Origin: an uncultured Schlesneria sp.
GTDB taxonomy: Bacteria; Planctomycetota; Planctomycetia; Planctomycetales; Planctomycetaceae
Length of the DNA: 64,000 nt
Assembly (NCBI GenBank): GCA_903840265.1
Contig: CAIMFH010000187.1
Coordinates: forward strand, 12,554 to 76,553
Reading direction: 5' to 3'
Below the pieces are notes generated by a model. The model searched no databases. It saw only the letters and a list, made by a program, of their open reading frames with translations, and was not told where the DNA came from. Both the position numbers and the translations under genes were made by a program. How positions within the stretch are numbered: position 1 is the stretch's first letter; each line of letters starts with the position of its first letter. Below, in pieces: positions 14,946 to 31,309 of this stretch.

Positions 14946-15043
14946 ATGAGATGTCGAAAACATCGCCGCATCTATTGGTCGTATTTCCTCTGCTTACTAT
15001 CTCCGCCTGCCTGCTTCTCTGGAAGCCACGAGACGGGACTTGA
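14946..15043 (+). pseudogene. Solo frameshifted 3' module of the two-TM paralog family found at 25085-27625
   Basis: Reads ..IYWS in one frame and VFPLLTISACLLLWKPRDGT* in another. It contains CTCTGGAAGCCA, also present in array members. Restoring a 4-nt GTCG repeat gives YWSVVFPLLTISACLLLWKPR. Confidence 0.6.
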
Positions 15044-22891: not shown

Positions 22892-24037
22892 ATGTCGAAT
22901 TATCTTTTCACCAGTGAATCGGTCAGTATGGGCCACCCCGACAAGGTGGCCGACCAGATTTCCGATGGGGTGCTGGATGCCCTGCTGGCTCAGGATCCAC
23001 GTTCGCGCGTGGCCTGTGAAACACTGTGTACCACGGATCTGGTCGTTCTGTCTGGTGAAATCACGACACAGGGCAAGATCGATTACGTTGAAATCGCCCG
23101 CGATGTCGTCAAAGACATCGGCTACACCTTCGACAACGTCGGTTTCCATCACGAAACCTGCAAGGTGCTGGTCGCGATTCACAGCCAAAGCCCAGACATC
23201 GCCATGGGTGTCGACCGCGAAGGGGCCGGCGACCAGGGTTTGATGTTTGGTTATGCCTGCAATCAGACCCCTGAGCTGATGCCGCTGCCAATCGCCTTGT
23301 CGCATCGCATCATCAACCGCCTGACGGAAGCTCGTCAGAAGAAGGAAGTCGACTGGCTGCGTCCTGACGCCAAGAGCCAAGTCACCGTTGAATACGATGC
23401 GAACAACAAGCCGATCGGTATCTCGGCTGTCGTTGTTTCAACTCAGCATCATCAGGACGTGTCGCAAGCCGACATCGCCAAGTTTGTGACCAATGAAGTC
23501 GTGAACAAGTCGGTCCCTGCCGAACTACTGTCTTCGAAGACCAAGTACCACATCAACCCCACGGGCAACTTCGTGGTGGGCGGTCCTCACGGTGACACCG
23601 GCCTGACTGGCCGCAAGATCATCGTCGATACCTATGGTGGCTGGGGCCGTCACGGTGGTGGTGCCTTCAGTGGTAAGGATCCAACCAAGGTCGACCGTTC
23701 CGCAGCCTACATGGCTCGTCACGTTGCCAAGAACATCGTCGCCGCTGGCTTGGCCTCGGAATGCGAAGTTCAACTGGCTTACGCGATCGGTGTCGCCGAT
23801 CCAGTCAGCATCCGCGTCTCCACCAATGGCACCAGTGTCATCAGTGAAGACAAGATCGTTGGCCTGGTTCGCGAACACTTCAAGCTGACACCACTGGGTA
23901 TCATTGAGTACTTGAAGCTGCGTCGACCAATCTACCGCAAGACCGCGAGTGGCGGCCACTTTGGACGTAACGACGCCGACTTCTCCTGGGAAGCGACGAA
24001 TAAGGCTGCCGATTTGAAGAAGGCGGCCGGAATTTAA
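22892..24037 (+). CDS. metK: Methionine adenosyltransferase
   Basis: [32 protein letters not shown] and [19 protein letters not shown]. Confidence 0.98.
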
Positions 24038-24148
24038 GCTGCGATCGCCGATGACATCAACCGCGCTTTCGGGAGACGACCTCCCGAACGCCGGTTGGTT
24101 CATCATGATGACTTAATCGATTTGCGACTGTCGGATGGAAGGGAGTCC

Positions 24149-25018
24149 ATGCCGGATCAAGACGCTTTTAGAGCTTTGACGCTCGCAGGCCCACGGCGGC
24201 ATTCATTGGCCGTATGGATCTGGTCGGCGTTACTCATTGCCGATGTCGTGCTGGCAACTCGTCGCCTTTCGGGCCAGTTCACGGAATCGCTGCCGGCGGC
24301 ACTCGCCACCTTCAGCGGCCTGATCATTGCGATCACATCGTTGGCCGCGTGGTCTTTGTACACGTCCGTCCCTCGGCCGCAGACTACAAAGCTGCTCTCA
24401 CTTGCCCCACAAGCAGTCTCGTTGGCCATCACCGCGATCTGGTGTTGGGCACTCTCCGCTGCGACCAGTCCGCTGGCTGCGGGCGTGTTGTTCTCCATCG
24501 TTCTTCTCCAACTTGGTGTGCTCGCAGCGTCATCAGACCTGACGTGGAGTGAAGCTCCACCACGAATATCGCATTCTGAACTTCCAGTCATGCCAGAGAT
24601 GCCGGCCCCTGTTGTAGCGACCATTTCAGAGCCGACATTCTCTGTGCAAAGTGACGAGCCGTTCGTCGAGGAGACGGAGTTCGCCGAAGAAGGGTCAGGG
24701 GAGATCGACGAAGGCCAGTCGCTGTGGCTGTCTCGCCGCACGACCGATGACACCGAGCAGATCGAGGGTTGGGTCCGAGTCGAATTCGCGGCCGGCCAAC
24801 GGGAAACAATGATCCACGTCGCGTTTTGCCCTCCATTACCAGGCATCCCTGAGATCGAAACCGAAGACCTGGAAGGATCGGATCTGGAGATCCGCGTCGC
24901 CGCGGCCTTCGCGTTCGGTGCCAGGATCTCTGTGCGTCGCAGCAACCCCTTGGAGGAATCGACCACAGATCGAGTTGGATTCTTCGCGCAAGCACGCGCG
25001 GCCAATCGCGCCGCTTAG
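24149..25018 (+). CDS. Hypothetical membrane protein (four TM plus soluble C-terminal domain)
   Basis: Hydrophobic N-half, acidic linker and C-terminal IHVAFCPPL..P.IE motif. GGGAG RBS before ATG 24149. Confidence 0.75.
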   Translation: MPDQDAFRALTLAGPRRHSLAVWIWSALLIADVVLATRRLSGQFTESLPAALATFSGLIIAITSLAAWSLYTSVPRPQTTKLLSLAPQAVSLAITAIWCWALSAATSPLAAGVLFSIVLLQLGVLAASSDLTWSEAPPRISHSELPVMPEMPAPVVATISEPTFSVQSDEPFVEETEFAEEGSGEIDEGQSLWLSRRTTDDTEQIEGWVRVEFAAGQRETMIHVAFCPPLPGIPEIETEDLEGSDLEIRVAAAFAFGARISVRRSNPLEESTTDRVGFFAQARAANRAA

Positions 25019-25084
25019 ATTGAGCATCGCAACGAATGGGTTTTCGACGGGAATAGCCACGCTTCACTGAATGCCGTGCAATCC

Positions 25085-25561
25085 ATGCTGACATTCTTCA
25101 ACAGTTGGCGACGAACAACGGGCTGCGTTCTGCTCGCAATGGCACTCGTTTCAATGGGCGGGTGGATAAGAAGTCGGCATCTTCAAGATCAGCTTATCAT
25201 CGCGCATCAGAATTCCGTCCACATTCTCATGTCCATGAACGGCGCGTTGGCCTGGTCGCGTTCTTCGCCATCTTATTTGACCGCCCCCATCTATTGGTCA
25301 TCAAAAAGATTCAACAAGGCGATGGAAGATTCATGGGATGGTGCTGAGGTTCGTTGGAAATGGCAGCGCTTTGGTTTCGATTTTGGGGCCGGATCGTATA
25401 CGGACAAGTCTTCCATTGGTGGAGTCTTTACTCGACGAGTTGAACTGTGGCAAATCCCGTACTGGGCTATCACCATCCCGCTAACACTGCTCTCCGCCTA
25501 CCTGATTCTCTGGAAGCCAAATCGAGTACCGCCAAATACCGAGAGCCCAATTCATGCGTAG
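25085..25561 (+). CDS. Two-TM paralog array, member 1
   Basis: MLTFFNSWRRTTGC..GWIRS ... IPYWAITIPLTLLSAYLILWKP. Confidence 0.85.
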   Translation: MLTFFNSWRRTTGCVLLAMALVSMGGWIRSRHLQDQLIIAHQNSVHILMSMNGALAWSRSSPSYLTAPIYWSSKRFNKAMEDSWDGAEVRWKWQRFGFDFGAGSYTDKSSIGGVFTRRVELWQIPYWAITIPLTLLSAYLILWKPNRVPPNTESPIHA

Positions 25562-26048
25562 CTTCTTGATTGGGTGGAGAAGAAAAACAGGTTGCATCTT
25601 GTTAATGGCGGCCCTGGCATTGATGGCTGGGTGGGTCAGGAGCAAGTATCTATTCGATGTGTGCAATTGTCCTATGGGGCAGAACTATGCGGTCGCCCTG
25701 ACATCATGGCAAGAATCGTTTGCAATCAGAGTTGGCTGGGACAAGGACGATCCTTGGAACGACTACTGTTGGGATACTCGTGATCATGACAACTGGGGCT
25801 ATGTCAATGATCCCGAGTCCACCTGTTATCGTTTCAAGCAACCGATTCCAGACGGCAGCGGATGTTTCGTCACTTGGTACTTGCTGAGTGATGGAGCTGG
25901 AATTGGAGTTACTCCACTCCACCAACGCTCGTATTGCAAAATGGTGTTCGCGATTGTCCCTTACTGGTCGGTCATTCTCCCGCTGACTCTGCTCTCTGCC
26001 TACCTGATCCTCTGGATGCCGCAGAAGCGGGTACAAATCAATGCGTGA
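25554..26048 (+). CDS. Two-TM paralog array, member 2
   Basis: MRSFLIGWRRKTGC..GWVRS ... VPYWSVILPLTLLSAYLILWMP. Overlaps member 1 by 8 nt (ATGCGTAG). Confidence 0.85.
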   Translation: MRSFLIGWRRKTGCILLMAALALMAGWVRSKYLFDVCNCPMGQNYAVALTSWQESFAIRVGWDKDDPWNDYCWDTRDHDNWGYVNDPESTCYRFKQPIPDGSGCFVTWYLLSDGAGIGVTPLHQRSYCKMVFAIVPYWSVILPLTLLSAYLILWMPQKRVQINA

Positions 26049-26607
26049 ATTCTTCCACGGATCGCGGCGGAAAGTAGGCTGCGTCATGCTGCTGATGGCG
26101 TGCTTGCTGACAACTTTGTGGATTAGAGCACTCAGGACAGCAGATATTATCTCCGTTAGTGGCGATCACAGAACTGCGTATGTGGTTGCCTCAAATCAAT
26201 ACGGACTCATGGGCCTCTTGGTGTACCCGGCGGAAGCAACAGTCTCATTGAGGATTCCTGAGACAACCAGCTGGTGGACACGACCAAATCAATCCTTCAA
26301 TCTCTTTGTCGATTGGCCTTGTGGGTGCGTCTGCATTGTTACGCACGTGATCGAACCAATCGCATTTCCTGATTGGGAAACTTACCCCGCCGTGAAGCGC
26401 AATTGCGTTCTGGACAAGATTTGGTGCGGATTCCACCTCGGCCACAATCTCTCCAATGCGCACGGCGCGTACAATAAAGAGATGAGATATTTTGTCGTCC
26501 CCTGCTGGTCGCTCGTGACCCCATTGACTCTGCTGTCTGCCTACCTGATTCTCTGGAAGCCACGTCGACTACCCCCACCAAAAACCGAAAACCCATTCAA
26601 GGCGTAG
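26041..26607 (+). CDS. Two-TM paralog array, member 3
   Basis: MREFFHGSRRKVGC..LWIRA ... VPCWSLVTPLTLLSAYLILWKP. Overlaps member 2 by 8 nt (ATGCGTGA). Confidence 0.85.
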   Translation: MREFFHGSRRKVGCVMLLMACLLTTLWIRALRTADIISVSGDHRTAYVVASNQYGLMGLLVYPAEATVSLRIPETTSWWTRPNQSFNLFVDWPCGCVCIVTHVIEPIAFPDWETYPAVKRNCVLDKIWCGFHLGHNLSNAHGAYNKEMRYFVVPCWSLVTPLTLLSAYLILWKPRRLPPPKTENPFKA

Positions 26608-26729
26608 CGCCTTCCGTCGTTGGCGATGAAGAGCGCGTGCAGAAATTATTTGATCCTGAGGAGTTCTTCGACGTTGAGTGGAGGTGGGATTGAGCGGGAT
26701 TTCATTTCGCGCGAGGGGAGCTTTGAATC

Positions 26730-27134
26730 ATCGGCGAGTTCTTCTGGGGTTGGCGACGGAAAGTTGGCAGCGTTCTGGTGGCGCTGGCGATCACGAGCAT
26801 GTGGATTCGCAGCGTATATGTGAAAGACGTCTTCGTTCCTCCGCAATGGGTTGGACTTAAAGCGTCATTGCTCTCGCTTGAGCATTCGATCGCCTACCAG
26901 CATTTCGATACCGCCGCTCCTACGTCGGAGCGTTTGTGGGTTTCGTTCTCGATTGACGGCTCCGAGATCAATGCTCCTGGCCACAACTGGCAATGGAGGT
27001 CTAACGGATTCGGCTATATTTCCGATCGAGGGAGGACTTGCCTGGTAATCCCATACTGGTCCCTCGCCGTCCCGATCACGCTTCTCTCAGCTTGCCTGAT
27101 TCTTTGGAAGCCGCGGAAGAAGGCGGTGATTTGA
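26730..27134 (+). CDS. Two-TM paralog array, member 4 (ATC at the expected start position)
   Basis: ATC-GEFFWGWRRKVGSVLVALAITSMWIRS ... IPYWSLAVPITLLSACLILWKP. An in-frame TGA lies just upstream, and GAGGGGAG is RBS-like. Confidence 0.7.
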   Translation: MGEFFWGWRRKVGSVLVALAITSMWIRSVYVKDVFVPPQWVGLKASLLSLEHSIAYQHFDTAAPTSERLWVSFSIDGSEINAPGHNWQWRSNGFGYISDRGRTCLVIPYWSLAVPITLLSACLILWKPRKKAVI

Positions 27135-27625
27135 TGCGTGAGTTCTTCCGAGGTTGGCGGCGAAAAGCGGGCGTGATGACACTGGTAATGGCAACGGTGT
27201 TCTTGGGGGCATGGGTCAGAAACGTGGTCGTCACTGATCAATTCGAACTGGTGATCGGTGATTCGACGAATTACTTCACATCGACTGAAGGATATTTCCG
27301 ATGGACTCGACATGCACAAATAATTGTCGGGGATCCGTCAGTGATGTGGTACTCCGTTCCCCATGGTTCTCCATGGCAACCACTTGATGAGCAAGCCGCG
27401 ATTGAATGGCGATGGCGGTGGAACTGGTGTCTATTCGATTTCGGAAGTGGTCTCTTTCGAGGAGTTGCGTTGGTGGAATGGACGCTGCCTTGCTGGATTG
27501 GATTCCCCCTCACAGGCCTGTCTGCCGCGTTGCTAATTCTCAGCCCCCCAAAAGCTCGGCGGATCAAGGCGCCAGCGGAAGGACCATTAAAAACAAAACG
27601 CATCGTGCCTCTTGAGGAGACATGA
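27134..27625 (+). CDS. Two-TM paralog array, member 5
   Basis: MREFFRGWRRKAGVMTLVMA..AWVRN ... LPCWIGFPLTGLSAALLILSPP. TGATG overlap with member 4. Confidence 0.85.
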   Translation: MREFFRGWRRKAGVMTLVMATVFLGAWVRNVVVTDQFELVIGDSTNYFTSTEGYFRWTRHAQIIVGDPSVMWYSVPHGSPWQPLDEQAAIEWRWRWNWCLFDFGSGLFRGVALVEWTLPCWIGFPLTGLSAALLILSPPKARRIKAPAEGPLKTKRIVPLEET

Positions 27626-27658: not shown

Positions 27659-28450
27659 TTATTGAGCAGGTCGTTGAGGTCGGTTGCCACCGCGTCCGCC
27701 ACCTTGTCCGCCGCCAGGACCACCTGGGCCGCGTCGTAGTTGGGCGACGTCGAAGTCTTTGCCCTTGAGCTTGGCGAATGCAGCCGTCTGGTCAGCGGTC
27801 AGCACAGCGGCCAGATCCTTGTCGCGGGTCTGATTCAACTCGCGGATCTTCTCGCCGTTTCCGCTACCAGCACCGCCGCCGCCGCCGCCTGCACCAAACA
27901 GTTCACGGCTCTTTTCGCCCGCTTCTTTGTTGATCGAAGCGATCTTGTCCTGTTGATCTTGCGTCAGCTTGAGTGCCTTCACCACTTCGGGATCAGCATA
28001 AGCTTGTGCGCCTTCGGCCTGCACGAGGATCTGGTCCAGTCGTTCGACTTGCTTGGCGTCGAGAACCGCGGCCAGTTTTGGCTTGTACTTTTCAGCAACG
28101 GCCTTGCTGGTCTCAGCCTGCTTGGCCATCATCTCGGCCATTTTCGTGCGGCGTTCGCTTTCTGGAAGATCGCGCAAGCCTGCGAAATCGCCGCTTGGTC
28201 GCAGTTCGGCGCGAGCTTCTTCGCCGAGAGTCTTGACCTTGGCGATTTGATCGTCCGTCAGGGCCAGTTCCTTCTGGACGGCTTCATTTCCCGCCAACGT
28301 GACCGCTGTCTGTCGACCACCCATCCCGAAACCACCACCACCTCGACCGCCGCGGCCACCTGCGCCTCCGGGCTGCGCGAACGCACTCGAGGCCATCAAT
28401 GCTGCCATTCCCAATGCTGCCAGACCTGTCCATGACCCTAAACGCATCAT
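27659..28450 (-). CDS. Secreted helical protein with Gly-rich ends (Spy/CpxP-like)
   Basis: Signal peptide, QKELALTDDQIAK, LKLTQDQQDKI and VLTADQ repeats resembling LTxxQ motifs. Confidence 0.75.
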   Translation of the reverse strand: MMRLGSWTGLAALGMAALMASSAFAQPGGAGGRGGRGGGGFGMGGRQTAVTLAGNEAVQKELALTDDQIAKVKTLGEEARAELRPSGDFAGLRDLPESERRTKMAEMMAKQAETSKAVAEKYKPKLAAVLDAKQVERLDQILVQAEGAQAYADPEVVKALKLTQDQQDKIASINKEAGEKSRELFGAGGGGGGAGSGNGEKIRELNQTRDKDLAAVLTADQTAAFAKLKGKDFDVAQLRRGPGGPGGGQGGGRGGNRPQRPAQ

Positions 28451-28851
28451 TCCACCCCTTTATGAGAATAAGGAAGGACGAACCCAGCCGTCGCACTTGC
28501 AACGCTCCGCCCAGCATCCAACACCGCGATCGACAAATCGACTCGGCACTGTGCCTCAATCATTTGCACGAGAGCACTTTTAGCCGCGATGCGTCCGCAT
28601 CAAAGAACTCATCTGACTCCCCGCTGGAGACACACTTTTTCCGCGTCTCCATTCAGATGGAGCGATAGCATACGAAGGCAAACCTTAATGACAGATGAAG
28701 TTGTGCCGGATCATTGACAGCCTTCGCTAAGATTGGCCAGTTGGATTCGATGTGACGTGGTCGACCGCGAGGCGACTTAGGCCGCAGATCACCCGTCTAC
28801 TTTCGCTAATCACCAAGGTTTCACAAGATGATCGCAGAAGGACCGAAGGAT

Positions 28852-29505
28852 ATGCGAGTTTTGATTGTCGAGGATGAACCAGATCTGCAGCGAGTTGTCT
28901 GGACTTGCCTGCAGGAAGAAGGGTACGTCGTCGATGCCGCCAGCGATGGGGAAGAGGGACTGTATAAGGCCGCAAACTGGGACTATGACGTGATTGTCCT
29001 GGATGTGATGTTGCCCAAACTCGACGGCTGGCAGGTGCTGGCCCGGCTGCGAAAACTCAAGGCGACTCCGGTGTTGATGCTGACCGCACGCGACACCGTC
29101 CACGACCGGGTTAAAGGCCTCGATGCAGGCGCTGATGACTATCTAGTCAAACCATTTCAGTTGGCGGAACTGCTGGCTCGTCTGCGAGCGCTCATCCGAC
29201 GGGCGGCGGGTCAGTCCCAGCCGGTCATCGAAATCGGCGACACCCACATCGACACCGTGTCTCGTACGGTCACCCGAATTGGGTCGCTGATCCCGCTAAC
29301 CGCCATGGAATATTCGCTGGTCGAACTGCTGGCGTTGCATCGCGGAAAACTGGTCACGCGATCGATGATTTATGACAAGCTGTACGACGAAGATGATGAT
29401 ACACTTTCGAACCTTGTCGACGTTCACGTCTCAAACATCCGCCGCAAATTGGGTCACGAGTTCATCACCACTCGTCGCGGTCAAGGGTACATGATTAATG
29501 ATTAA
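28852..29505 (+). CDS. OmpR-family response regulator
   Basis: MRVLIVEDE, VLDVMLP, LMLTARD, GADDYLVKPF and a winged-helix C-terminus (TRRGQGY). Confidence 0.95.
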   Translation: MRVLIVEDEPDLQRVVWTCLQEEGYVVDAASDGEEGLYKAANWDYDVIVLDVMLPKLDGWQVLARLRKLKATPVLMLTARDTVHDRVKGLDAGADDYLVKPFQLAELLARLRALIRRAAGQSQPVIEIGDTHIDTVSRTVTRIGSLIPLTAMEYSLVELLALHRGKLVTRSMIYDKLYDEDDDTLSNLVDVHVSNIRRKLGHEFITTRRGQGYMIND

Positions 29506-31309
29506 GTCGCTTCGCTGGCGTCTGCAGTTGTGGCACGCGCTGCTGCTGACGACCGTGCTGATTATTTTCGGCGGGGTCGTGTATGCATTGCAGTGGCAAA
29601 CTCGATTGCAGCAGGCCGACGCGGAACTCGATCGAGTTGCGTCGGTGCTGACATCACGCCTGCGAGGCTTATTTCCAGTCCCTCGATCACCGAACCCCGG
29701 ACCTTGGCGACCACCCAGCCGTGGGCCGGGATCTTCGCGCCCACCCGAGCAGACCGAGGATCGGGGAAGTCCGCTGATTGCCGACGCGCTGTTGCCGGCA
29801 AACGTTCCGCTCCCGGTGCCACCCCCCTGGCTGATTGCCCGTCCTCGCGATGATGATCAGAACGACGCACGCCGCCGCGAAAGCCGTGGTCAGCAGCGAG
29901 GCGGATCACGCGAAGAGGGGAATCGCGGGGGACGAAATGATCAAGCGCGGGATGGTCAGAGGAGTAATGCACCCGAGCCATCACGAGACGGAGCGAATAA
30001 TGGACCGCGGGATCCTCGCGATCCGTCACGTTGGTTCAGCCCAGCCCCTGGCTTAGGACTGCCTGAAGAGTTCACTCATCTGTTTGAGGGCGACGAGCAC
30101 AGCTTCTACTTCATTATCTGGGACAAGAACGGAACAGTCCTGGAGAAATCAAAATCGGTCGAGGACATTCCATTCCCGGATCTTCACACGCAAGCCGATG
30201 GACTTCCCGTCCGACAAGCTCGGATGCGCGACATGCAGCGGGAGGTGATTCACGTTTCGCGTTTCGACATTAACGTCCTGGTGGGGAGATCGCTGATTCC
30301 AGACCTCGCCGCGTTGCACCGAACCGCCTTCCGCCTGGTCCTGACCGGCCTGGGAGTGTTGTCAATCGGCCTGGCCGGGGGTTGGTGGTTTTCCTCGCGC
30401 GCCATTCGCCCGATTGCAGAAATGTCTGCGATTGCGGAATCGATTTCAGTCAAAAATCTGTCGACTCGTATCAATGTGAGCTCGACGGCGACGGAGCTTG
30501 AGCAACTGGGGACAGTGCTGAACCGGACGTTCGATCGATTGCAGTCGGCCTTTGAGCGACAGGGCCAATTCACGGCTGACGCGTCGCATGAGTTGCGGAC
30601 GCCGGTGGCGGTGATCTTGTCACATGCGGAGTTGGCCCTGTCACGGCCGCGAGCCGTGGGCGACTACCAGAACACGATCCAAGCCTGTCGGCGTGCAGCT
30701 TTGCGCATGAAAACGTTGATCGATTCATTGCTCCTGCTGGCTCGCTTCGATTCCGGCGAACCCGAAATTGAGTTGCGACCTGTCGAACTCGATCGACTGG
30801 TGGTGGATGCTGTCGAGATGCTGCAGCCACTGGCCGATGAGCGACATGTCAAACTGAGTTGCCGGGCCGAGCCAATGACGATTGATGCCGACCACGATCG
30901 ACTCTTCCAAGTCCTCACGAATTTGCTGAGTAATGCCATCCGGTATAACAAACCCGATGGTCGTGTCGATGTGGACGTGACCAGCGATGAACATTCGGCG
31001 ATCATTCGCGTGGTCGATACTGGAGTGGGCATTCCTGCCGACGAATTGCAGCACGTGTTCAATCGCTTTTACCGAGTCGACAAGGCGCGGACGACAGCGG
31101 AAGGAGGCTGCGGTTTGGGCTTGTCGATCTGTCAGACGATCGTCGACGCTCACCATGGATCGATCAACGCGTTCAGCGAACTGAACGTTGGCACAACAAT
31201 CGAAGTTCGACTGCCGCTGGTACAGATCTCGCCCGAGCCTGGCGTTCAATCCGATGCGAGTGACAACGTAGACACGGCGACGAGCCTGACGGCTGCATCG
31301 GGGCGATAG
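29498..31309 (+). CDS. Sensor histidine kinase (HAMP-HisKA-HATPase)
   Basis: Two TMs, FTADASHELRTPV H-box, NLLSNAIRYN, DTGVGI and GCGLGLSI. Confidence 0.95.
   Translation: MIKSLRWRLQLWHALLLTTVLIIFGGVVYALQWQTRLQQADAELDRVASVLTSRLRGLFPVPRSPNPGPWRPPSRGPGSSRPPEQTEDRGSPLIADALLPANVPLPVPPPWLIARPRDDDQNDARRRESRGQQRGGSREEGNRGGRNDQARDGQRSNAPEPSRDGANNGPRDPRDPSRWFSPAPGLGLPEEFTHLFEGDEHSFYFIIWDKNGTVLEKSKSVEDIPFPDLHTQADGLPVRQARMRDMQREVIHVSRFDINVLVGRSLIPDLAALHRTAFRLVLTGLGVLSIGLAGGWWFSSRAIRPIAEMSAIAESISVKNLSTRINVSSTATELEQLGTVLNRTFDRLQSAFERQGQFTADASHELRTPVAVILSHAELALSRPRAVGDYQNTIQACRRAALRMKTLIDSLLLLARFDSGEPEIELRPVELDRLVVDAVEMLQPLADERHVKLSCRAEPMTIDADHDRLFQVLTNLLSNAIRYNKPDGRVDVDVTSDEHSAIIRVVDTGVGIPADELQHVFNRFYRVDKARTTAEGGCGLGLSICQTIVDAHHGSINAFSELNVGTTIEVRLPLVQISPEPGVQSDASDNVDTATSLTAASGR

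Follow-up and report, generated by a model that had tools for sequence, protein, structure and literature searches.

A tandem array from an unnamed, Schlesneria-centred family of predicted periplasm-facing hairpin proteins with probable birth-and-death turnover through its gene ends

Introduction

How does a planctomycete genome come to hold a string of small, putative membrane-protein genes that are alike at both ends and divergent in between, and what might such genes be kept for? Planctomycete genomes are rich in expanded families to which no role has been assigned. The window, i.e., the whole stretch of 64,000 nucleotides analysed here, contains such a string at positions 25085-27625 of the plus strand, in which each of five paralogous genes (w1 to w5) consists of a conserved N-module, a divergent middle and a conserved C-module. 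Although their family comprises at least 4,500 sequence clusters, with some 60 copies in each Schlesneria genome, it is unnamed and lacks a structural relative. It also appears to offer a clean case in which conserved protein ends coincide with DNA blocks where whole genes swap, a coincidence that, to our knowledge, has to date been analysed chiefly in Gram-positive toxin-immunity arrays. We propose, with a probability of roughly 0.6, that the array is one of an unnamed, Schlesneria-centred family of periplasm-facing hairpin proteins, which undergoes birth and death via its end blocks and provides a repertoire of binding modules.

Results

The array genes share constant ends and mostly overlapping junctions

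ORF read-out gave five paralogs (Table 1), which are 33-38% identical in pairs. The residues F4, R9, R10, G13, W27, R29 and D35 of the N-module are invariant in w1-w5, as is the pattern P..W..P.T.LSA.L..P of the C-module, and a profile made from w1-w5 retrieved each of its own members with an E-value between 1e-34 and 1e-45. By these measures w1-w5 are evidently related far beyond chance, and the description in the initial annotation of five same-strand ORFs with common N- and C-terminal modules held for every gene.

Table 1. Positions of array genes, junction blocks and relics in the window
Feature	Position	Strand	Remarks
Orphan frameshifted C-module relic	14946..15043	+	..RIYWS, frame shift, VVFPLLTISACLLLWKPRDGT, stop; 10 kb upstream of array
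w1, family member	25085..25561	+	158 aa; ATG at 25085, alternative GTG at 25076
Junction block 1 (w1 C-module, 8-nt overlap, w2 N-module)	25453..25600	+	70-82% identity to other genome loci
w2, family member	25554..26048	+	164 aa
Junction block 2 (w2 C-module, overlap, w3 N-module)	25950..26110	+	blastn vs genome
w3, family member	26041..26607	+	188 aa
w3 C-module block	26500..26600	+	blastn vs genome
Decayed N-module relic	26600..26629	+	AGG CGT AGC GCC TTC CGT CGT TGG CGA TGA, i.e., (M>R)RSAFRRWR, stop; read directly from sequence
w3-w4 spacer	26608..26729	+	GAGGGGAG a few bases 5' of TGA ATC ATC
w4, family member	26730..27134	+	134 aa; ATC start
Junction block 3 (w4 C-module, TGATG overlap, w5 N-module)	27045..27195	+	blastn vs genome
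w5, family member	27134..27625	+	163 aa; most divergent C-module of array

Starts and stops had been described as interlocked throughout the array. This was correct for w1/w2 (ATGCGTAG at 25554-25561), w2/w3 (ATGCGTGA at 26041-26048) and w4/w5 (TGATG at 27132-27136), whereas w3 and w4 are set apart by a 122-nt spacer. Tight, operon-like coupling was nevertheless borne out by the family at large: in 68 of 92 tandem junctions the gap does not exceed 4 nt, and two stereotyped forms recur, ATGCGTGA in 33 cases and TGAATCATG in 21. An RNA hairpin between a C-module and the following N-module was considered as a coupling device and rejected, as the 68 junctions were less structured than shuffled sequences (mean z = +0.53) and RNAalifold found no consensus structure in family junctions. 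Scans for promoters and terminators gave nothing over background, and an Rfam search gave no match.

Direct reading of w4 revealed no ATG, GTG or TTG ahead of its N-module; a TGA at 26724-26726 is followed by ATC ATC GGC GAG TTC. The codon equivalent to the w4 start is ATT in the relative L110 and ATC in L115, and the ATC-start gene w4 is kept in frame in three genomes. The spacer upstream is homologous from 26641 on to the spacer between w2' and w4' of L110, while the stretch 26329-26773 is 91% identical to L115. The decayed N-module within this region overlaps the w3 stop just as a live ATGCGTAG junction would, and it is kept in L115. In the genome, about nine partial family ORFs were found.

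The family is large, lineage-centred and without a name

A genome-wide profile search detected about 61 family ORFs in 44 loci. Among 1.84 billion representatives in public data, 4,518 clusters (50% identity) matched at E ≤ 1e-3, most of them from Schlesneria, and a search of genome contigs returned 79 family loci, nearly all from the same genus. As judged from these matches, the family is large, unnamed and lineage-centred, occurring mainly in Schlesneria and in a few other Planctomycetota. The initial annotation could assign no family name, and we came to the same result: neither Pfam nor NCBIfam holds a family at E ≤ 1 for any of w1-w5, 32 family members returned scattered single matches only (E ≥ 0.03), PADLOC gave no match, PHROGs a single one (E = 0.015), and the best E-value of a PDB profile search was 0.47. 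Every name obtained by cluster look-up was "hypothetical protein."

Across 144 family loci, arrays reach 15 copies, and at 88 loci a lone gene stands in an unrelated context. Natural two-copy fusions also exist, e.g., on contig C128, in which a C-module stands directly before the next N-module; for this fusion no fused homologs were retrieved, and MAFFT spread single-copy homologs over both halves.

Models and charges fit a membrane hairpin around a periplasmic beta sheet

The AF2 model of w2 (pLDDT 87, pTM 0.79) comprises a helix at residues 2-30, seven strands and a second helix at residues 138-153, and that of w3 (pLDDT 80) has the w2 fold with a low-confidence insert at residues 89-109. 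The models thus predict one fold for both proteins, namely a TM helix, seven core beta strands and another TM helix. Family members carry 3.7 K/R in the 12 residues of the N-terminus and 0.53 K/R per residue in the C-tail, and both TM segments are uncharged. This distribution fits an N-in/C-in arrangement with a periplasmic middle, a topology drawn solely from charge and AF2 prediction. The existence of natural two-copy fusions fits a location of both protein ends on one side of the membrane, and since the host cell is diderm, the domain between them would face the periplasm. The view of the initial annotation that constant membrane anchors flank a variable extracytoplasmic domain is consistent with both the helix/sheet/helix models and the positive-inside charges.

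Each protein would accordingly form a hairpin in the cytoplasmic membrane. The short basic N-terminus (FFxGWRRKxG) would lie in the cytoplasm ahead of TM1, the middle, about 93 aa long (38-148), would fold into the periplasmic sheet of seven core strands, and TM2 (PYWSxxxPLTLLSAYLILW) would be followed by a basic stop-transfer sequence, KPRK, and a short tail in the cytoplasm. These constant ends appear to play a double role: as protein they would form the membrane hairpin, which may also act as a docking or assembly surface, and as DNA they belong to the recurring blocks described below.

Foldseek searches against PDB and BFVD returned nothing at E ≤ 0.001. The top match of both models, the periplasmic domain of CcmF (PDB 6zmq), was not significant (E = 1e-3 to 1e-2, TM-score 0.25-0.27). 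CcmF likewise has a periplasmic beta sheet between two TM helices, but it is a 589-aa polytopic cytochrome c haem lyase, the motifs of which are all missing from the family.

Genes are gained, lost and replaced at module borders

The array lies between metK with a gene for a 307-aa membrane protein on one side and genes for a CpxP-like LTXXQ protein and a response regulator/histidine kinase pair on the other. The same syntenic locus reads a b w2' w4' x y in L110/L031 and b' c w2'' in L111. From its C-module (25453) on, w1 is homologous to gene b of L110 and is thereby a mosaic; orthologs of its body sit in other arrays in another order (73% in L115, 61% in L113). With orthologs in L110 (80%), L111 (68%) and L112 (56%), w2 emerges from the alignments as the conserved core of the array. 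The syntenic arrays of L110/L031 and of L111 lack w3, which L115 has (86% at the amino acid level), whereas w4 has an 81% identical ortholog in L110/L031. The position of w5 is taken in L110/L031 by two unrelated small membrane ORFs, and its ortholog (68%) directly follows w1' in L115.

Homology blocks shared with relatives start at the PYW motif of w1 (25453), and their ends, at 26031 and 27115, coincide with C-module ends; gene z of L115 matches the w4 spacer and N-module at 91% nucleotide identity and diverges from 26773. Members are replaced, gained or lost at loci with 86-93% identical flanks, and the same holds in most of 14 further syntenic comparisons, in which the flanks are 85-92% identical; replacing paralogs are about 30% identical to the gene replaced, and in C140/L084 and C180/L086 homology breaks 20-80 nt from the gene ends. 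Copy number varies freely between species. Altogether, the alignments indicate that cassette turnover by gain, loss and replacement, with breaks at module borders, is real, as the initial annotation had supposed. Its expectation of differing array order was borne out as to content and border breaks; the change in order itself comes from L115 alone, a single 1.6-kb Logan contig that is possibly chimeric at the repeated modules, and a search for a second contig with this arrangement found none.

End blocks recur genome-wide, and middles are under purifying selection

When the array was compared with the whole genome by blastn, only the modules matched other loci, at 70-82% identity, and the middles had no DNA match elsewhere, which argues that there is no template/variable repeat pair. 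Together, a C-module, the stereotyped junction after it and the N-module that follows make up a block of about 150 nt. This block recurs genome-wide, its copies sharing as many as 43 identical nt in a row, and homologous recombination between such blocks could move, delete or replace whole gene bodies. In this way the family would evolve by birth and death, with each member kept by purifying selection. Identical runs of at least 30 nt occur in 4.3% of paralog pairs, compared to 0.05% in a column-shuffled null; gene conversion among paralogs is thus suggested but not proven, since this null ignores subfamily descent.

The middles had been called hypervariable, with a diversifying domain, a description that did not survive comparison of orthologs. 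For w2, omega is 0.22 overall and 0.15 in the middle, and for w4 it is 0.19 and 0.09, respectively; over 32 ortholog pairs, the values are 0.23 (N-module), 0.27 (middle) and 0.18 (C-module). Orthologs across loci are 56-90% identical, whereas paralogs within the genome are all at most 43% identical. These rates and identities indicate that ortholog middles are under purifying selection and not hypervariable in place, and that the within-genome paralogs are all old.

Neighbours of family loci belong to abundant planctomycete families

Neighbour clustering in the genome and across the 144 loci found no neighbour gene in more than 11 of the 144. The recurring neighbours are abundant planctomycete families (DUF1501, LRR, PQQ, DUF1559, 3-keto-disaccharide hydrolase, sulfatase and histidine kinase); only such families having surfaced, a conserved partner gene was rejected. 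The same clustering detected no recombinase or reverse transcriptase family recurring beside the 144 loci, and no toxin or secretion-system genes beside them. Type IV pilin-like/DUF1559 proteins appear only as unrelated neighbours of family loci, and no family member matched N_methyl or SBP_bac_10 (N-terminal methylation motif of such proteins, G-F-T-L-x-E).

Discussion

The use that we consider most likely is a repertoire in which a common membrane anchor presents binding modules to the periplasm, every module having a ligand of its own. Our best guess is thus a birth-and-death repertoire, to which the T7SS immunity arrays esaG and tipC come closest among known systems. In the firmicute T7SS, tipC and esaG form strings of tandem, non-identical paralogs with homology blocks at their ends, recombination between which changes copy number and yields mosaics, with up to about 15 copies; TipC itself is built of seven beta strands with terminal helices, and its variable face serves in binding (Garrett et al. 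2022, PMC9484751). Our family likewise has strings of paralogs, blocks at the 5' and 3' ends, probable recombination between them and arrays of about 15 copies, and seven beta strands are framed by terminal helices in TipC and in our models. The combination of terminal blocks with paralog recombination is seen here at the boundaries 25453, 26031, 26773 and 27115 and in the replacement of members at syntenic loci. It differs from tipC/esaG in that it shows no sequence or fold match (Pfam and PDB; TipC is outside the top 50 fold matches), has no adjacent toxin or secretion genes, is dispersed over 44 loci, mostly as single genes, has a two-TM hairpin architecture and resides in a diderm host, the Planctomycetota. 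Terminal-block recombination therefore shows that the family works like T7SS immunity arrays, not that it is a member of them. The lpl cluster of Staphylococcus aureus, in which copy number varies by recombination of a conserved block of one gene with that of its neighbour (PMC9484751), is similar in that the recombining block spans a 3' part, the junction and a 5' part; the block is, however, central in lpl and terminal in our family, lpl encodes lipoproteins, and the two families are unrelated.

Taken literally, the analogy would make the family an immunity repertoire, each member neutralising one variant of a competitor-delivered polymorphic toxin active in the periplasm or at the membrane, with arrays expanding and contracting like esaG and tipC. 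The tipC-like gene anatomy, the arrays of up to 15 copies, the turnover of content between species and the purifying selection on each member all speak for this. We hold it only tentatively, as no toxin or secretion gene stands beside any of the 144 loci, 88 of which are single genes in unrelated contexts, a crude YD-repeat scan of the genome yielded no Rhs-like ORF, and Pfam, PADLOC and PDB provide no link to EsaG or TipC.

A broader version of the repertoire reading, which we likewise rate as unlikely though worth stating, is a planctomycete-specific recognition system of unmatched fold for immunity or sensing, in which about 60 periplasmic beta-sheet modules per genome would share one constant hairpin and gene ends would serve as recombination sites for exchanging, stacking and discarding specificities. 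We know of no recombination-driven repertoire for immunity or sensing in Planctomycetota. Should the members turn out to be immunity or receptor modules, they would hint at systems of antagonism or sensing not yet seen in Planctomycetota and would also give a small, modular scaffold for periplasmic display; if they are neither, the family would still be of use as a marker of rapid gene turnover among close planctomycetes.

That the proteins have no recognition role, and are dispensable, lineage-specific structural or filler membrane proteins (e.g., for membrane organisation) whose turnover reflects weak selection and recombination-prone repeats, seems doubtful to us. Such an account would suit the lack of a conserved partner gene near the 144 loci, the freely differing copy number and the frequency of relics and fragments (26600-26629, 14946-15043 and the partial ORFs); it sits poorly with the clear purifying selection on ortholog middles (omega 0.09-0.27), with an ATC-start w4 kept in frame in three genomes and with some 60 deeply diverged, intact ectodomains, which a filler would not need.

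Still less probable is that the proteins are processed at the surface, the N-module being a cleaved signal or lipoprotein peptide and the C-module a sorting signal cut by a dedicated sortase-like enzyme. Of 53 members, 32 have Cys21 within a VMAC motif that resembles a lipobox, and the C-end has three parts (PYWS, a hydrophobic stretch and KPRK), so that, as in PEP-CTERM and LPXTG signals, a motif, a hydrophobic helix and a basic cluster succeed each other near the C-terminus in tens of copies per genome. Some Cys21 members may indeed be processed. The cysteine is, however, missing in 40% of members, including w1, w2, w4 and w5; a variable tail extends beyond KPRK; AF2 gives one continuous helix at residues 2-30; and natural fusions put a C-module right before the next N-module. 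Unlike PEP-CTERM and LPXTG signals, the tag is not found on other protein types, and no linked sortase was seen. Both modules are confined to the family rather than shared with diverse cargo proteins: an N-module motif scan of genome ORFs hit only one ORF outside it, and a looser C-module pattern hit 13, of which none carries a C-module resembling that of the family. No match came from NCBIfam, where the described CTERM sorting models are collected.

Programmed hypervariation of the middle by a diversity-generating retroelement or site-specific cassette switching, for which the constant-variable-constant layout is the sole support, is close to refuted by the missing template repeat, the middles matching nothing else in the genome DNA, orthologs that are 56-90% identical under purifying selection, and the lack of a reverse transcriptase or recombinase family recurring near arrays.

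A separate observation concerns synonymous sites. Against L110, dS of the N-module is 0.21 in w2 and 0.17 in w4, whereas the middles are at about 0.95. That the modules are under general synonymous constraint was nonetheless rejected as an explanation, since this low dS did not hold over the 32 ortholog pairs (pS 0.44, 0.46 and 0.42), in which the conserved codon runs of the modules evolve no more slowly. Module cores share non-preferred codons between paralogs, yet orthologs show no synonymous constraint there.

Organization of the array

The initial annotation described five interlocked ORFs on one strand, and five such genes with conserved N- and C-terminal modules, w1 to w5, were indeed found, encoding unnamed proteins with two predicted transmembrane (TM) segments. 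Pairwise identity among them is 33-38%, and the invariant residues lie only in the N-module (MxEFFxGWRRKxG, a hydrophobic stretch, then W-x-R-S...D) and the C-module (PYW...PLTLLSAYLILWKP). The interlocking of starts and stops holds at three of the four junctions but not between w3 and w4, which are separated by a gap of 122 nt containing a decayed N-module. A further relic of the family, an orphan C-module with a frameshift, sits at 14946-15043, some 10 kb ahead of the array. Among 92 tandem junctions in the window genome and relatives, the 8-nt overlap ATGCGTGA occurs at 33 and TGAATCATG at 21, with a gap of at most 4 nt at 68; such stereotyped junctions make translational coupling plausible as a trait typical of the family. 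When RNA structure was looked for at family junctions, the junction RNA was not structured.

Features of the array, its flanks and its counterparts (window coordinates unless a contig is named; primes, orthologs in relatives; a to c and x to z, array-slot genes of relatives)
Feature	Position	Strand	Description
307-aa gene	24095-25018	+	predicted membrane protein
w1	25085-25561	+	family ORF, 158 aa
w2	25554-26048	+	family ORF, 164 aa
w3	26041-26607	+	family ORF, 188 aa
w4	26730-27134	+	family ORF, 134 aa
w5	27134-27625	+	family ORF, 163 aa
w1/w2 junction	25554-25561	+	overlap ATGCGTAG
w2/w3 junction	26041-26048	+	overlap ATGCGTGA
w4/w5 junction	27132-27136	+	overlap TGATG
Decayed N-module	26600-26629	+	AGGCGTAGCGCCTTCCGTCGTTGGCGATGA, reads (M>R)RSAFRRWR*; inside w3-w4 spacer
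LTXXQ gene	27659-28450	-	LTXXQ/CpxP-like glycine-rich periplasmic protein
Response regulator	28828-29505	+	OmpR type
Histidine kinase	29498-31309	+	HAMP
L110 homology block 1	23726-25018		
L110 homology block 2	25453-26031		from PYW of w1 C-module to end of w2 C-module
L110 homology block 3	26641-27115		ends at w4 C-module
L110 homology block 4	27575 onward		
Array, window			w1 w2 w3 (spacer) w4 w5
Array, L110/L031			a b w2' (spacer) w4' x y; two independent assemblies
Array, L111			fragment, b', c, w2''
Array, L115			w3' (86%), spacer, z, w1', w5' (68%)
Two-copy fusion	C128:4771-5502		natural 275-aa ORF, four predicted TM segments; own genome, outside window

The w4 gene has no ATG, GTG or TTG ahead of its N-module and begins ATC ATC GGC GAG TTC after a TGA (26724-26726); the equivalent codon is ATT in L110 and ATC in L115, both contigs of relatives. 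Its reading frame is unbroken in all three genomes, and the ORF with its conserved ATC/ATT start is under purifying selection. ATH occupies the start position in 5 of 92 tandem family genes (window genome and relatives), and w4 and its counterparts likely use non-canonical initiation. The start context reads TGA ATC AT(C/T) GGC (window 26724-26732, L110 ~2983-2991, L115 ~400-410), and a Shine-Dalgarno-like run, GAGGGGAG, lies a few bases upstream.

Gene turnover at syntenic loci

The order metK, 307-aa gene, array, LTXXQ gene (minus strand), response regulator and histidine kinase is kept in three relatives, and the array content differs among them. Homologous DNA in the window and L110 falls into four blocks, whose edges at 25453, 26031 and 27115 place the breaks at module borders, as had been anticipated. 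Gene b of L110 shares with w1 a common tail (KPNRVPPNTESPIHA in w1 versus KPHRVPSNTENPINV in b) on a different body. Since the body of b has an ortholog in L111 (b') and that of w1 has orthologs in L115 (73%) and L113 (61%), the difference reflects replacement of one body by another and not fast divergence at the site. In L115, z matches the spacer and the w4 N-module at 91% nt identity up to 26773, with a different body beyond; the changed gene order there is tentative and needs confirmation, because the source is a single short contig.

A further 14 syntenic comparisons paired the window's own genome with MAG contigs whose flanks were 85-92% identical; there, family genes were frequently non-orthologous (about 30% identity), additional or absent. 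For example, in the C140/L084 pair a single gene faces two, with the break about 20 nt past the gene end, and in C180/L086 one gene is missing and three stand in for another. These comparisons support cassette turnover independently, and the proposed cassette-like gain, loss and replacement is borne out at L110/L031, L111 and these loci. The w5 slot of L110 (3393-4037, equal to L031 793-1572) holds two unrelated small membrane ORFs, x and y, of 83 and 110 aa with two hydrophobic segments each, so the position seems open to small membrane proteins of other kinds too.

Selection and recombination

The claim of diversifying hypervariation in the middle, the divergent part between the modules, did not survive: dN/dS (omega) of 0.09-0.27 indicates purifying selection. 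Against L110, w2 had an omega of 0.22 overall and 0.15 in its middle, and w4 had 0.19 overall and 0.09 in its middle, compared with 0.10, 0.09 and 0.01 for the neighboring LTXXQ, kinase and regulator genes. Across 32 ortholog-like pairs it was 0.23 in the N-module, 0.27 in the middle and 0.18 in the C-module, with pS equal in all three. Because paralogs within the genome are at most 43% identical and the w1-w5 middles have no DNA similarity to other places in it, a template/variable repeat mechanism and recent duplication are both excluded.

The only array DNA resembling other loci is the block of C-module, junction and N-module (70-82% over 70-170 nt). Several non-preferred module codons (e.g., CTC TCC GCC TAC CTG ATT CTC TGG AAG CCA CGG; CGA CGA) are common to 70-90% of paralogs, and in orthologs they change at the same pace as other codons (among identical-residue codon pairs, 0.40 differ, versus 0.32-0.35 elsewhere). 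Identical runs of at least 30 nt, the longest being 43 nt, occur in 4.3% of paralog pairs versus 0.05% in a column-shuffled null that ignores subfamily descent. Together these patterns suggest that modules recombine with, or convert, one another from time to time, and argue less for selection acting at the DNA level. Against L110, the N-modules of w2 (25554-25650) and w4 (26730-26830) have dS of 0.21 and 0.17, far below the 0.92 and 0.99 of their middles; this is not general across the family and could reflect recent local conversion.

Predicted fold and topology

AlphaFold2 modeled w2 (32 homologs; pLDDT 87, pTM 0.79) as a helix (2-30), seven strands and a helix (138-153), and w3 (55 homologs; pLDDT 80) with the same element order plus a low-confidence insert at 89-109. 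The shared order suggests that the middles, described as barely alignable and indeed divergent in sequence, adopt one predicted fold with variable loops and one main indel site. Among 180 members, the first 12 residues average 3.7 K/R, both hydrophobic segments lack charge, the middle is slightly acidic (median length 93 aa, from 38 to 148) and the C-tail opens with 0.53 K/R per residue. Applying the positive-inside rule, we infer an N-in/C-in topology with a periplasmic middle, which, with the modeled helix-strands-helix order, supports the earlier view of membrane anchors around an extracytoplasmic domain. The C128 fusion, whose fusion point reads ...PLTVLSASLLLS-IGTFFHGRRRK..., fits with both protein ends lying on one membrane side; one relative carries a lone gene that corresponds to the second half only (52% identity). 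The top Foldseek match for both models was the haem lyase CcmF (PDB 6zmq; E = 1e-3 and 1e-2, TM-score about 0.26), not significant, though the same match twice.

Family distribution and genomic context

Searches of Pfam, NCBIfam, PADLOC and PHROGs, a PDB profile search, and Foldseek against PDB and BFVD gave no usable match, in agreement with the initial failure to name the family. Iterating an HMM over six-frame ORFs from the window's genome, which totals 7.49 Mb in 204 contigs, recovered 61 family ORFs, about 52 of them full length. They occupy 44 loci, of which 35 have a single gene, six a pair, one a run of four and two a run of five. Among 1.84 billion 50%-identity representatives, 4,518 proteins match the profile at E <= 1e-3, and 3,683 do so at the stricter E <= 1e-10; several matches fuse two to four copies. 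Both modules are confined to this family. Nearly all of 79 loci from a scan of species-representative genomes belong to Schlesneria, either to MAGs or to the complete Schlesneria sp. T3-172 genome, and a few are labelled "Planctomycetota bacterium"; given the narrow pattern used for the scan, the family may in truth range more widely. The longest array seen has 15 family ORFs (6.9-kb locus L032, Schlesneria MAG contig CAIQIR010000092.1). Six family ORFs on a 251-kb contig (L105) assigned to a Henriciella sp. (alphaproteobacterial) MAG reflect either mis-binning or transfer out of the phylum.

Of the possible readings, the data best support a birth-and-death repertoire whose binding modules face the periplasm and share a constant membrane hairpin. 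The originally noted pattern and its cassette dynamics stand, and diversifying hypervariation is not borne out. An undescribed family with an unmatched fold, it evolves in a manner familiar from other systems. Among described systems, the tipC/esaG immunity arrays come closest: they have homology blocks at the gene ends, tandem paralogs that recombine and as many as 15 copies, and TipC itself has seven strands with terminal helices (PMC9484751). Membership in those arrays fails on homology and toxin linkage; a crude genome scan found no Rhs-like ORF.

No neighbor family recurs at more than 11 of 144 loci, and those that recur are abundant planctomycete families. The 307-aa protein just upstream of the array (86% aa identity in relatives) has no Pfam or NCBIfam match. 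Downstream, the LTXXQ gene adjoins the regulator/kinase pair, and together the three resemble an envelope-stress module of the Cpx type. A Schlesneria MAG encodes a response regulator with 100% aa identity to the one in the window, which suggests that the window's genome is a Schlesneria species; between species the regulator is 100% and the kinase about 84-88% identical.
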